A stretch of 5,225 nucleotides of DNA from a virus (lineage: Duplodnaviria; Heunggongvirae; Uroviricota; Caudoviricetes). Position numbers and translations under genes: made by a program. Under the pieces are notes generated by a model. The model searched no databases. It was not told the origin of the DNA and worked only from the letters and a program-made list of their open reading frames with translations. Below are positions 1,465-5,225 of this stretch, in pieces. Location: the IMG/VR virus record IMGVR_UViG_648276652_000011, positions 1 through 5,225 of that record; one strand, written 5' to 3'. Numbering within the stretch: position 1 is the stretch's first letter; every line of letters begins with the position of its first letter.

Positions 1465-2250
1465 ATGAGTACAGCACTCGCAACGCTGGCTGGGAAGCTG
1501 GCTGAACGAGTCGGCATGGATTCTGTCGACCCACAGGAACTGATCACTACTCTTCGCCAGACGGCATTTAAAGGTGATGCCAGCGATGCGCAGTTCATCG
1601 CATTGTTGATCGTCGCCAACCAGTACGGCCTTAATCCGTGGACGAAAGAAATTTACGCCTTCCCTGACAAGCAGAACGGCATCGTTCCGGTGGTGGGCGT
1701 TGATGGCTGGTCCCGCATCATCAATGAAAACCAGCAGTTTGATGGCATGGACTTTGAGCAGGACAATGAATCCTGCACATGCCGGATTTACCGCAAGGAC
1801 CGTAATCATCCGATCTGCGTTACCGAGTGGATGGATGAATGCCGCCGCGAACCATTCAAAACCCGCGAAGGCAGAGAAATCACCGGACCGTGGCAGTCGC
1901 ATCCCAAACGGATGTTACGGCATAAAGCCATGATTCAGTGTGCCCGTCTGGCCTTCGGATTTGCGGGTATCTATGACAAGGATGAAGCCGAGCGCATTGT
2001 CGAAAATACCGCATACACTGCAGAACGTCAGCCGGAACGCGACATCACTCCGGTTAACGATGAAACCATGCAGGAGATTAACACTCTGCTGATCGCCCTG
2101 GATAAAACATGGGATGACGACTTATTGCCGCTCTGTTCCCAGATATTTCGCCGCGACATTCGCGCATCGTCAGAACTGACACAGGCCGAAGCAGTGAAAG
2201 CTCTTGGATTCCTGAAACAGAAAGCCACTGAGCAGAAGGTGGCAGCATGA
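1465..2250 (+). CDS. bet: Bet (Red-beta) single-strand annealing recombinase (261 aa)
   Basis: [64 protein letters not shown]... I recognise this as lambda Red-beta; it starts 5 nt after the gam stop. Confidence 0.97.
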
Positions 2251-2927
2251 CACCGGACATTATCCTGCAGCGTACCGGGATCGACGTGAGAGCTGTCGAA
2301 CAGGGGGATCATGCGTGGCACAAATTACGGCTCGGCGTCATCACCGCTTCAGAAGTTCACAATGTGATAGCAAAACCCCGCTCCGGAAAGAAATGGCCTG
2401 ACATGAAAATGTCCTACTTCCACACCCTGCTGGCTGAGGTTTGCACCGGTGTGGCTCCGGAAGTTAATGCTAAGGCGCTGGCCTGGGGAAAACAGTACGA
2501 GAACGACGCCAGAACCCTGTTTGAATTCACTTCCGGCGTGAATGTTACTGAATCCCCGATCATCTATCGCGACGAAAGTATGCGCACCGCCTGCTCTCCC
2601 GATGGTTTATGCAGTGACGGCAACGGCCTTGAACTGAAATGCCCGTTTACCTCCCGGGATTTCATGAAGTTCCGGCTCGGTGGTTTCGAGGCCATAAAAT
2701 CGGCTTACATGGCCCAGGTGCAGTACAGCATGTGGGTGACGCGAAAAGATGCCTGGTACTTTGCCAACTATGACCCGCGTATGAAGCGTGAAGGCCTGCA
2801 TTATGTCGTGATTGAGCGGAATGAAAAGTACATGGCGAATTTTGACGAGATGGTGCCGGAGTTCATCGAAAAAATGGACGTGGCACTGGCTGAAATTGGT
2901 TTTGTATTTGGGGAGCAATGGCGATGA
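2247..2927 (+). CDS. exo: Lambda exonuclease Exo (Red-alpha), 5'-3' dsDNA exonuclease (226 aa)
   Basis: [64 protein letters not shown]... I recognise this as lambda Exo. ATGA start/stop overlap with bet (2247-2250). Confidence 0.97.
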
Positions 2928-3106
2928 AGCATCCTCACGATAATATCCGGGTAGGCGCGATCACTTTCGTCTACTCCGTTACAAAGCGAGGCTGGGTATT
3001 TCCCGGCCTTCCTGTTATCCGAAATCCCCTGAAAGCACAGCGACTGGCTGAGGAGATAAATAATAAACGGGGGGCTGTATGCACAAAGCATCTCCTGTTG
3101 AGTTAA
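2924..3106 (+). CDS. orf60a: Lambda Orf60a-like small protein (60 aa)
   Basis: The second ATG (2924) overlaps the exo stop as ATGA and has the SD gggag (2911-2915) at 8-nt spacing. It gives 60 codons, with the same size and position as lambda orf60a. The ORF-track start at 2918 is too close to the SD. Confidence 0.75.
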
Positions 3107-3270
3107 GAACGTGTATCGAGATGGCACATAGCCTCGCTCAAATTGGAGTCAGGTTTGTGCCAATACCAGTAGAAACAGACGAAGAATTTCATACGTTAGC
3201 CGCATCCCTTTCACAAAAGCTGGAAATGATGGTGGCGAAAGCAGAAGCAGATGAGAGAGACCAGGTATGA
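3079..3270 (+). CDS. orf63: Lambda Orf63-like small protein (63 aa)
   Basis: The 63-codon ORF overlaps the orf60a 3' end by 28 bp, as I recall for the orf63/orf60a arrangement in lambda. SD gggggg at 3069-3074. Confidence 0.8.
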   Translation: MHKASPVELRTCIEMAHSLAQIGVRFVPIPVETDEEFHTLAASLSQKLEMMVAKAEADERDQV

Positions 3271-3350
3271 CAACCACTGAATGCATTTTTCTGGCAGCGG
3301 GCTTCATATTATGTGTGCTTATGCTTGCCGACATGGGGCTTGTTCAGTGA
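3267..3350 (+). CDS. Candidate 27-aa hydrophobic (single-TM-like) peptide, MTTTECIFLAAGFILCVLMLADMGLVQ; speculative
   Basis: The ATG overlaps the orf63 stop as ATGA (3267-3270), with purine-rich gagagag 8-9 nt upstream. The stop TGA (3348-3350) overlaps a GTG (3347) in the frame of the next ORF. It is below the ORF-track size cutoff and is read by eye only. Confidence 0.3.
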   Translation: MTTTECIFLAAGFILCVLMLADMGLVQ

Positions 3351-3562
3351 CACCTCAGCAAGAAAACGCCCTTCGCAGCATTGCCCGTCAGGCTAATTCT
3401 GAAATCAAAAAAGCCAGACAGCAGTTTCCGGATAAAAACGTCGATGACATTTGCCGTAGCGTACTAAAGAAGCACCGCGAAACGGTAACGCTGATGGGAT
3501 TCACACCGACTCATTTAAGCCTGGCGATCGGCATGTTAAACGGCGTCTTTAAGGAACGGTGA
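3281..3562 (+). CDS. Hypothetical small protein (93 aa from ATG 3281; alternatively 71 aa from GTG 3347)
   Basis: Open frame with a helical-looking, charged C-terminal 70 aa (TPQQENALRSIARQANSEIKKARQQF...). There is no SD before ATG 3281, but a G-rich SD (gggg, 3336-3339) lies 7 nt before GTG 3347. The N-terminal 22 aa are Cys/His-rich (CAYACRHGAC). The start is uncertain. Confidence 0.5.
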   Translation: MHFSGSGLHIMCAYACRHGACSVTPQQENALRSIARQANSEIKKARQQFPDKNVDDICRSVLKKHRETVTLMGFTPTHLSLAIGMLNGVFKER

Positions 3563-3582
3563 ACATGAAAAGCAAAATCATC

Positions 3583-3608
3583 AGGGAGCTACAGGCTCCT
3601 TTTTTATT
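3583..3608 (+). terminator. Rho-independent terminator-like hairpin
   Basis: Stem ggagc (3585-3589) pairs with gctcc (3595-3599), loop tacag, followed by tttttt (3600-3605). Flanking pairs extend the stem to 7 bp. Confidence 0.6.
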
Positions 3609-3660
3609 ATTCGCATTTACCCTCAAGCGTATTAACCAACAATTCAGGGATTAATGAAAG

Positions 3661-3882
3661 ATGGCAGACATCATTGATTCAGCATCAGAAATCGAAGAAT
3701 TACAGCGCAATACAGCAATAAAAATGCGTCGTCTGAACTACCAGACTGTATCCGCAACTCATTGTTGTGAATGTGGCGATCCGATAGATGAGCGAAGACG
3801 CCTGGCCGTTCAGGGTTGTCGGACTTGTGCAAGTTGCCAGGAAGATCTGGAGCTTATCAGTAAACAGAGAGGTTCGAAGTGA
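3661..3882 (+). CDS. TraR/DksA-family C4 zinc-finger protein (73 aa), lambda Orf73-like RNA polymerase-binding regulator
   Basis: The 73-aa protein has CxxC...CxxC spacing (C-E-C-G ... C-R-T-C-A-S-C) near the C-terminus, and its size is typical of TraR-like proteins. Confidence 0.8.
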   Translation: MADIIDSASEIEELQRNTAIKMRRLNYQTVSATHCCECGDPIDERRRLAVQGCRTCASCQEDLELISKQRGSK

Positions 3883-4250
3883 GCGAAATTAACTCTCAGG
3901 CACTGCGTGAAGCGGCAGAGCAGGCAATGCATGACAACTGGGGATTTGACGCGGACCTTTTCCATGAGCTGGTAACACCATCGATTGTGCTGGCACTGCT
4001 GGATGAACGGGAAAGAAACCAGCAATACGTCAAACGCCGCGACAATGAGAACGAGGATATTGCACTAACGGTAGGGAGGCTGCGCGTTGAGCTGGAAGGC
4101 AAACACAGGCGCATTACTGAGCTGACAATGTGGATTAAGCGACTGAGTTCCTCTCTCAAAAACGCAAAACCAGACAGCAAGTTGCCGGATGACGCAATGA
4201 TCTGGCTAAATAATGAAGGGCTTACCAGTATAGAGGATATTTTACGATGA
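3879..4250 (+). CDS. Ea22-like (ead/Ea22 family) N-terminal-domain protein (123 aa), GTG start
   Basis: N-terminus MSEINSQALREAAEQAMHDNWGFDADLF carries the QALREAAE signature I associate with Ea22-family proteins. The GTG start overlaps the upstream stop (GTGA, 3879-3882); SD agagagg at 3866-3872. Confidence 0.65.
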   Translation: MSEINSQALREAAEQAMHDNWGFDADLFHELVTPSIVLALLDERERNQQYVKRRDNENEDIALTVGRLRVELEGKHRRITELTMWIKRLSSSLKNAKPDSKLPDDAMIWLNNEGLTSIEDILR

Positions 4251-4894
4251 GCACTTTTACCATGGAATGGCTACAAAATACGATTACCAGTATTGAGTCA
4301 GCACGAGATGAAATGCCATTCGGACTCGACAACGATCAAGCACACATGCTTACAGCATTTAAAATCGCTCTCGCCTCACTGGAACGCGAGCGGGTTCGCC
4401 ACGAGCATGCCAAATGGTCTGACTCCACATTTGGCTGCGTTGGCCCCATTGGTCCACTGAAACACCTCTCAAAAGAGGCTCTGGAAGCCGCAGCCGAACC
4501 TGACGATCTCAGCGAGTGGGCTGATATGCAGTTCCTGTTGTGGGATGCACAGCGCCGTGCTGGTATCAGTGATGCTGAAATTACCGCTGCTATGGAAAAT
4601 AAATTGAAGATCAACATGGAGCGCCAGTGGCCTGAACCAAAAGATGGTGAGCCTCGTTTGCACATTAAAGAACCCGGCAACTCTCCGGTAACTCCGGATG
4701 GTTGGATAAGCTGTAGTGAGCTAATGCCAGATGATGGTCAGCACGTAATTATTTTATGTGATGGCGCATTCGTTCTTTATGCGCAATATCGAGACGGAGA
4801 GTTTTTCGATATTGTCCGCAATGGTGATGAATTTTTCGAAACACAGAGTCGCAATGTAACCGACTGGATGCAACTACCAGAACCTCCTCTTTGA
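4247..4894 (+). CDS. Phage protein with DUF550-like (MazG-like NTP pyrophosphohydrolase-type) N-terminal region and DUF551-like C-terminal domain (215 aa)
   Basis: ATGA overlap with the upstream gene; SD gagga at 4233-4237. The C-terminus ...VTDWMQLPEPPL resembles the DUF551 signature. The N-terminal region has acidic helices KEALEAAAE and SEWAD plus NKLKINMERQ, resembling MazG-type metal-binding motifs. Confidence 0.7.
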   Translation: MSTFTMEWLQNTITSIESARDEMPFGLDNDQAHMLTAFKIALASLERERVRHEHAKWSDSTFGCVGPIGPLKHLSKEALEAAAEPDDLSEWADMQFLLWDAQRRAGISDAEITAAMENKLKINMERQWPEPKDGEPRLHIKEPGNSPVTPDGWISCSELMPDDGQHVIILCDGAFVLYAQYRDGEFFDIVRNGDEFFETQSRNVTDWMQLPEPPL

Positions 4895-4996
4895 TAGCTA
4901 AGCTTATACATATCTTTTACATCAGCAATCTATTGTTAATCTCCAATCAATGTTACGTTGTCATCTCTCTCATGCTTTGGAGGTAGTGATATGTCT

Positions 4997-5225
4997 TGGA
5001 TTTGCCCCTATATTTCCAGACACCTGTTATCACTTAACCCATTACTGGCTTGCTGCCGTAGATATTCCCGTGGCGAGCGATAACCCAGTGCACTATGCGG
5101 ATGCCATTCGTTATAATGCTCGAACGCCTCTGCAAGGTTCTTTGCTGCCGTTAACCCGTCTGGTTTGGGCATGACACTGATGTAGTCACGCTTTATCGTT
5201 TTCACGAAGCTCTCTGCTATGTCCG
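4997..5225 (-). mobile_element. IS2-like element (IS3 family), terminal inverted repeat and 3' portion; partial, continues off the right edge
   Basis: The + strand reads tggatttgcccctatatttccagaca from 4997, which is the reverse complement of the IS2 end (...TCTGGAAATATAGGGGCAAATCCA) as I recall it. The adjacent transposase C-terminus matches IS2. Confidence 0.88.
5008..5225 (-). CDS. insD: IS2-like transposase OrfB (InsD), C-terminal 72 codons (partial)
   Basis: The - strand encodes ...[71 protein letters not shown] with stop at rc 5008-5010. The frame is open to the window edge. The 'M' in the ORF track is an internal GTG. Confidence 0.9.

Follow-up and report, generated by a model that had tools for sequence, protein, structure and literature searches.

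The ea22-like locus

The window—the whole stretch of 5,225 nucleotides that was analysed—carries, in this order, a DUF2528 gene, the cIII/kil region, gam, bet, exo, DUF1317 (orf60a), DUF1382 (orf63), an ORF in the orf61 region, a TraR-like orf73, an Ea22-like ORF, and a DUF550/DUF551 gene. The features considered here are as follows.

3661..3882, + strand: equivalent of lambda orf73 (TraR/DksA zinc-finger; PF01258, E = 1.9e-9; phrog_54, E = 6e-26)
3879..4250, + strand: Ead/Ea22-family ORF; GTG start, 123 aa, begins MSEINSQALREAAEQAMHDNWGFDADLFHELV
3879..4097, + strand: lambda-type part of the ORF, codons 1-73; N-terminal helix MSEINSQALREAAEQA, a short lambda-type variable segment, and the family core
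within codons 1-73, + strand: conserved family core, VLALLDERERNQQYVKRRDxENEDIALTVGxLRVELE
4097..4098, no strand: mosaic junction, codon 73/74; the lambda similarity stops at 4097 and the VSe13 Ead similarity at 4101
4098..4250, + strand: replacement tail, codons 74-123 plus the stop; 50 aa, GKHRRITELTMWIKRLSSSLKNAKPDSKLPDDAMIWLNNEGLTSIEDILR
4233..4250, + strand: putative coupling signal; GAGGA at 4233-4237, a 9-nt spacer, and the ATG at 4247-4249 over the TGA at 4248-4250
4247..4894, + strand: P22 EaA-type gene, 215 aa; N-module 1-45, predicted pyrophosphohydrolase 51-145, DUF551 152-214

The preliminary description had recognised an Ea22-family N-terminus in the ORF at 3879..4250, and the profile and pairwise comparisons bear this out. 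PF13935 (Ead_Ea22) matches residues 2-79 over positions 1-113 of its 139 (E = 7.1e-21, 75.7 bits against a cut-off of 27), and lambda Ea22 (J02459 29847..30395) is identical at 69 of 81 positions in BLASTP, a highly significant similarity (E = 2e-49). The lambda protein has 182 aa, in agreement with the preliminary description, and the ORF was rightly described as 123 aa long and ending inside the start of the next gene. Both family signatures are present in the ORF: the N-terminal MSxIxxQALREAAE, and the core VLALLDERERNQQY.KRRD.ENEDIALTVG.LRVELE, whose columns are invariant or nearly so over the aligned Ea22-family members. The dN/dS of codons 1-73 against lambda is 0.195. In the PHROG collection, the ORF matches several families of unknown function.

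At NCBI, a 100% identical protein is named “MULTISPECIES: ead/Ea22-like family protein”. Among the matches listed there are dozens of variants of exactly 123 aa with 92-99% identity; a single one of these is carried by at least 1000 contigs. The same ORF, with one nucleotide different from the window, is annotated by RefSeq in E. coli Rb-23, whose prophage is 98% identical to the window and shows exactly the window's genes. This prophage has the order N...cIII-kil-gam-bet-exo...ea22-like...xis-int, and its DUF550/DUF551 gene is followed by eag, a hypothetical gene, xis, and int, beside torS. Judged by its sequence, the ORF is a member of the Ead/Ea22 family in the early-left region of a lambda-like E. 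coli prophage.

The two ends of the window depart from the Rb-23 prophage. Positions 1-217 are unmatched (the alignment begins at 218), so a further mosaic boundary lies upstream of the DUF2528 gene. At the other end, the homology stops at 4998, where Rb-23 goes on with eag, and the end of an IS3-family element begins at about 4984-4999 in the window (~4984-5225). Its - strand ORF at 5008..5205 is a transposase C-terminus, and “IS3 family transposase” is annotated at the matches in 4498 of 5426 E. coli genomes. The terminal sequence TGGATTTGCCCCTATATTTCCAGACA of this end resembles that of IS2. The particular prophage/IS3 junction occurs, at a coverage of at least 80%, in none of the 5426 complete E. 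coli genomes of the collection.

A mosaic junction behind the family core

Where does the similarity to lambda end? Positions 2101-4097 of the window form a single blastn block with lambda at 96.5% nucleotide identity. The block is collinear from bet to ea22 (bet-exo-orf60a-orf63-orf61-orf73-ea22), and the ORF takes the exo-xis position, directly after the TraR-like orf73. In the base-by-base view, near-identity to lambda continues up to GAGCTGGAA, and right after it the matching is at random level. Codon 73 is complete with base 4097, so the break sits after ...LRVELE. The similarity to Ead of the P22-like Salmonella phage VSe13 is lost at 4101 (blastn), and the aligned diverse family members share a common core through LRVELE and all diverge beyond it. 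In these alignments, codon 73/74 after LRVELE is the hinge where the members of the family in general diverge. The suspected module-swap junction is therefore a real mosaic boundary at 4097/4098, located both by the alignment with lambda Ea22 and by the nucleotide comparison with lambda.

On the right side of the junction, the window is similar to the P22 group: the identity to VSe13 is about 94.5% over 4364-4728 and 4851-4998 (blastn). The interval 4098-4363 has no phage match in megablast, and no phage in the phage collection carries the lambda head with this tail, the best matches spanning residues 1-81. The combination of this head and tail is common enough in E. coli prophages.

The lambda-type C-terminal region, which had been described as lacking, is indeed gone. 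In tblastn, lambda Ea22 residues 74-182 and Ea8.5 have no detectable match anywhere in the window (best E = 0.09); a displacement of the lambda C-terminal domain or of ea8.5 to another place in the window is thereby ruled out. The C-terminal K/R-G-E tripeptide is absent as well: the ORF ends in ...IEDILR, and lambda and VSe13 end in IRIKGE. No separately folded dimeric C-terminal domain follows the coil, as only 29 residues lie beyond the long helix described below, and the PDB holds no usable sequence match to the ORF. The suggestion that a MazG-like/DUF551 gene replaces the C-terminal part has some basis, in that DUF551 is fused to Ea22 heads elsewhere (P0231, P0192, and Stx V2). At this locus, however, the replacement is the ORF's own 50-aa tail, and the next gene is an independent gene of the EaA type.

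Two further observations concern the stretch collinear with lambda. Relative to lambda, the window is without one A at 3407, in an A-run of orf61 (region 3251-3562), which joins the orf61 reading frame to a downstream one in a 93-aa ORF at 3281..3562; the last 71 codons of this ORF are annotated as a hypothetical protein in the Rb-23 RefSeq record. Lambda orf61 stops early (…KKSQTAVSG*), with another frame open for a longer C-terminal sequence (…ARQQFPDKNVDDICRSVLKKHRETVTLMGFTPTHLSLAIGMLNGVFKER); where lambda has codon 10 of orf61, the window has a stop. Lambda orf61 may derive from a longer gene by frameshift, or the other way round. In addition, the record MW057783.1, “Campylobacter phage CJLB-4” (48,361 bp), matches orf73-ea22 over the same span as lambda does, at 94.0% DNA identity, and its annotation is in the style of lambda. 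It seems to be a lambda-like sequence that bears a Campylobacter name, perhaps through contamination or mislabelling.

The replacement tail continues the coiled coil

Residues 81-123 of the tail (ELTMWIKRL...IEDILR) constitute a module with tblastn matches in 21 phage records, at 64% identity to N15 gp45 and 51% to ST64B Sb32. In a search that took in 1.8 billion representative proteins, the match reaches residue 123 in four of 150 representatives (P0121, P0122, P0140, and P0195), and all four end exactly there. Among the sequences found to bear it, the module is always at the extreme C-terminus of the protein. Its last part, residues 96-123, contains six acidic and three basic residues as read from the sequence. 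An acidic character has been reported for the Ea22 C-terminal domains (PMC10834534), and the acidic tail of the ORF echoes it.

The AF2 model consists essentially of one long helix (pTM 0.38). The helix is continuous over residues 34-94, with 10-residue block-mean pLDDT values of 84-92 over 31-80; beyond it, short helices are placed at 104-112 and 118-122 with low confidence (pLDDT 49-67). A simple count gives a heptad register that runs through the junction, with the a positions at 58, 65, 72, 79, 86, and 93, and the d positions at 61, 68, 75, 82, and 89. Of these 11 a/d positions (residues 58-94), nine are hydrophobic, a result equalled in only 24 of 20000 shuffles. Lambda Ea22 has the same register. 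Together, the model and the heptad count predict a central coiled-coil region in the ORF, as in the Ea22 family; it extends over about 37-93, is strongest at 61-93, and is shorter than that of lambda. The tail residues 74-93 prolong it in the same register by about three more heptads. As one register crosses the junction, the swap kept the coiled-coil phase. At 44-58, polar residues occupy most of the a/d positions, and the oligomeric state is therefore uncertain. The model and the sequence thus show the predicted product as a small all-helical protein of the early pL operon, in which a conserved head is followed by a helix of some 60 residues that carries the heptads, and then by a short acidic cap.

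Coupling signals at the gene boundaries

The stop of orf73 overlaps the GTG start of the Ea22-like ORF (GTGA), and lambda has the same arrangement and the same GTG. A GAGAGG Shine-Dalgarno sequence lies at 3867-3872, 6 nt before the GTG and within the last codons of orf73. At the other boundary, GAGGA (4233-4237) is encoded within the EDILR codons, 9 nt 5′ of the ATG of the next gene in an ATGA overlap. The junction sequence GAGGAT(A/G)T(T/A)TT(A/G)(C/A)GATGA is common to the window, ST64B Sb32/Sb31, and N15 gp45/gp45.1. From these signals, orf73, the ea22-like ORF, and the eaA-like gene look like a translationally coupled chain.

The same junction leads to an observation on N15. Its gp45.1 (18 aa, L003 1641-1697) opens with MITT... 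at the ATGA junction that starts the EaA N-module in the window and in ST64B (MSTFT... and MTTIT..., respectively). N15 gp45.1 looks like the remnant of an EaA-type gene start, left after a deletion or recombination.

The K/R-G-E ending of other family members has a comparable setting. This C-terminal motif of Ea22 was termed of unknown significance (PMC7093339, 2020). It is encoded by AAAGGAGAG followed by TGA in lambda (L001 2317-2331), VSe13 (L005 1498-1513), and N15 (L003 906-922). In VSe13 (ead) and N15 (gp43/gp44), the AAGGAG is a Shine-Dalgarno sequence just 5′ of the ATG of the next gene; lambda retains AAAGGAGAGTGAGATCGG, but has no ATG there. K/R-G-E may therefore be a by-product of a ribosome-binding/junction cassette, and not a feature of the protein.

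The downstream EaA-type gene

The product of the next gene, 4247..4894, matches PF04447 (dATP/dGTP pyrophosphohydrolase, formerly DUF550; E = 4.5e-42, 142.7 bits against a cut-off of 23) and PF04448 (DUF551; E = 1.5e-17, 64.6 bits against a cut-off of 22), and has no usable sequence match in the PDB. Its N-terminal 45-50 residues match genes annotated EaA/DUF550 in P22-like phages. This N-module is 53% identical to the N-terminus of N15 gp45, and also matches that of ST64B Sb31. Since residues 1-45 are homologous from Met1 to other N-termini, the start of this gene is a true N-terminus. The gene is a separate one of the P22 EaA type, encoding predicted pyrophosphohydrolase and DUF551 domains, and lies on the ea8.5 side of the lambda map.

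Could the tail be a docking element for the EaA-like protein, so that the pair would amount to a non-covalent Ea22 V2? The tail adjoins the EaA N-module over the gene boundary in the window, ST64B, As1, S.Typ Adana, and FSL SP-016, and the two are one polypeptide in N15 gp45. Moreover, the Ea22-like and EaA-like genes appear translationally coupled, and DUF551 is carried covalently on Ea22 coils elsewhere: in P0231, P0192, and P0230, long representatives of the family, the Ea22 head and coil are joined with a DUF551 that aligns to that of the next gene. However, the association is not obligate. By comparison of accessions and coordinates, the N-module lies beside the tail in about seven of the 21 tail-bearing phage records, and the tail occurs in about seven of the 32 records with the N-module. 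Most tail-bearing genes, among them those of Rac, ArgO145, several Stx phages, and H19J, have no N-module behind them at the sensitivity used, and most EaA genes of the P22 type have no tail in front of them. An obligate pairing is thus ruled out, as only about a third of the tail-bearing phage records have it, and the adjacency may equally reflect a recombination unit across the gene boundary, which is common in lambdoid mosaics. We consider a docking function of the tail unlikely.

A direct complex of the two proteins through the tail and the N-module—with the coil displaying DUF551 and the MazG-type pyrophosphohydrolase non-covalently—is likewise a low-probability speculation, because the link between the two modules is optional. 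If it were true, the pair would be the split counterpart of the DUF551-bearing Ea22 V2 of the Stx phages, and the effect of Ea22 on lysis and lysogeny would be linked to a manipulation of the nucleotide pool.

Integrity of the short allele

The allele of the window is shorter than lambda Ea22 (123 versus 182 aa) and is without a globular C-terminal domain, and an IS3-family insertion lies about 100 bases downstream of the next gene. The ORF could accordingly be read as a decaying ea22 pseudogene that a deletion in a defective prophage has truncated. The tail, however, is not random read-through. Its module is conserved in N15, ST64B, and others: over the 43 shared codons, dN against N15 and ST64B is 0.21-0.30, given alone because the synonymous sites are saturated. 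Amino-acid conservation with saturated synonymous sites means conservation at the protein level. In addition, the tail keeps the heptad register, its codons include the conserved ribosome-binding site and ATGA of the next gene, and the short-tail allele is spread over many E. coli lineages. Decay is a very improbable account of this ORF.

Alternatively, the tail might be kept mainly for nucleic-acid reasons, as the ribosome-binding site and start of the next gene or as a recombination linker. Its last six codons hold both GAGGA and ATGA, the same junction recurs in ST64B and N15, and the alternative K-G-E ending is likewise encoded by a Shine-Dalgarno sequence for a following gene. This reading, however, covers only the last six or so codons, whereas the amino acids are conserved over all 43, and the nucleotide identity of the tail to N15 and ST64B is only 69-72%. 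It is as poor a candidate as decay.

Finally, the ORF and the next gene could be one Ea22-MazG-like/DUF551 gene, split by a sequencing or mutational frameshift, as the 4-base overlap of the two ORFs and the existence of Ea22-head/DUF551 fusions (P0231, 354 aa; P0192, 307 aa; and the published Stx Ea22 V2, PMC10834534) might suggest, but this hardly deserves consideration: the 123-aa length and its stop are kept in many variants (92-100% identical, at least 1000 contigs), the junction of the tail with the next gene (4098-4363) occurs in 54 of 5426 complete E. coli genomes with two genes annotated in 54 of 54, the same ...EDILR stop is followed by different genes in N15 gp45 and ST64B Sb32, the first 45 residues of the next gene match, from Met1, N-termini of N15 gp45, ST64B Sb31, and P22-type EaA, and the fused proteins join DUF551 to the coil via other sequence, without this tail and without a pyrophosphohydrolase domain. 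The preliminary description had named such a frameshift as a check on its own reading; no sign of one was found, and neither a longer in-frame gene at the locus in related genomes nor a sequencing-error origin of the 123-aa form was seen.

Comparison with related systems

Lambda Ea22 (UniProt P03756) is close in its location right after orf73, in its GTG over the orf73 stop, and in residues 1-73, which are nearly identical (about 94-96% at the DNA level up to 4097). From residue 74, there is no similarity. Unlike the ORF, lambda Ea22 continues with about 30 more coil residues, an alpha/beta dimeric domain at 102-182 (NMR, PMC10834534), and the terminal KGE, and its downstream neighbour is ea8.5 in place of an eaA-type gene.

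The Stx/EHEC Ea22 variants V1-V3 (PMC10834534), P0231, and P0192 share with the ORF the conserved N-segment and coil core (IPR025153/PF13935) and an exchanged C-terminal end. In contrast to the ORF, they are 300-360 aa long, have an additional N-terminal insert, and carry a globular C-terminal domain within the same chain. The V2-type DUF551 is of the same type as that of the next gene in the window (...SPVTPDGWISCSE.MP...HWM.LPEPPL), but in the window it resides on the neighbouring gene and is fused to a pyrophosphohydrolase domain, unlike in the V2-type proteins.

Ead of VSe13 (P22 group, 161 aa) has the family core and the hinge at 4101, and the VSe13 DUF550 (EaA-type) gene is 94.5% identical to 4364-4728. 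It differs in a longer N-terminal insert, a tail ending in IRIKGE, and an 87-aa gene between ead and the DUF550 gene.

The tail has its counterparts in N15 gp45 and ST64B Sb32, which carry ELTM(W/L)(I/V)KRL...(I/V)ED(I/V)LR at the extreme C-terminus and the GAGGAT...ATGA junction. N15 gp45, however, has no Ea22 head, its N-terminus being an EaA-type N-module. In ST64B Sb32 (205 aa), the Ea22 head is diverged and contains a Cys-rich insert, and the coil is far longer than in the ORF.

Proposed mode of action

The Ea22 genes are mosaic: the variants share the N-segment and coil (IPR025153), and their C-terminal domains are unrelated (PMC10834534, the 2024 NMR paper). DUF551 is portable: it occurs in dATP/dGTP pyrophosphohydrolase proteins as well as in Ea22 V2 (PMC10834534). 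The pro-lysogenic effect is known for lambda and Phi24B only; in both, deletion of ea22 lowers lysogenisation and host survival, although the C-terminal domains of the two are unrelated. Moreover, lambda and P27 Ea22 are tetramers, and the C-terminal domain by itself fails to reproduce the phenotype (PMC10834534, PMC7093339).

Assembly: Codons 1-73 supply lambda's own Ea22 head together with the conserved coiled-coil core. At codon 73/74, the longer coil and the alpha/beta C-terminal domain of lambda give way to the 50-residue tail, which adds about three heptads in register and then a small acidic cap, predicted as helical, as in N15 gp45 and ST64B Sb32.

Action: By analogy with lambda and P27 Ea22, the 123-aa protein would self-associate through the coiled coil. 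As for the Ea22 proteins of lambda and the Stx phages, binding to a partner may then favour lysogeny and survival of the host in early development. On this view, the function would lie in the head and coil that the alleles have in common, while the tail would be an end piece open to exchange. Self-association by the coil and a pro-lysogenic action via the shared head and coil are, on this analogy, the most likely behaviour of the allele. As the ORF is without the globular dimeric C-terminal domain and without K/R-G-E, the transfer of the pro-lysogenic role is an extrapolation.

Altogether, the ORF is very probably an intact mosaic ead/ea22 allele of the exo-xis pL region, with a lambda head and core, a swapped tail, and apparent translational coupling to its neighbours; its oligomeric, pro-lysogenic role is inferred from lambda and Stx Ea22.

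Significance

The exact protein, its family assignment, the mosaicism of Ea22, and the mobility of DUF551 are already public. The additions made here are small: the junction at 4097/4098, the kept heptad register, the identification of the tail as a module of the N15 gp45/ST64B Sb32 type, and the coupling signals in the terminal codons. A literature search on “Ea22-like” found no functional study of short-tail Ea22 alleles. The value is mainly one of correct annotation, as the sequence is ordinary and already stands under the right family name.

The ORF shows at base resolution how an ea22 locus is built of an exchangeable head, core, coil continuation, tail, and junction signal. If the short-tail allele promotes lysogeny, this would suggest that the activity resides in the head and coil—and not in any C-terminal domain—which would help to find what Ea22 binds.
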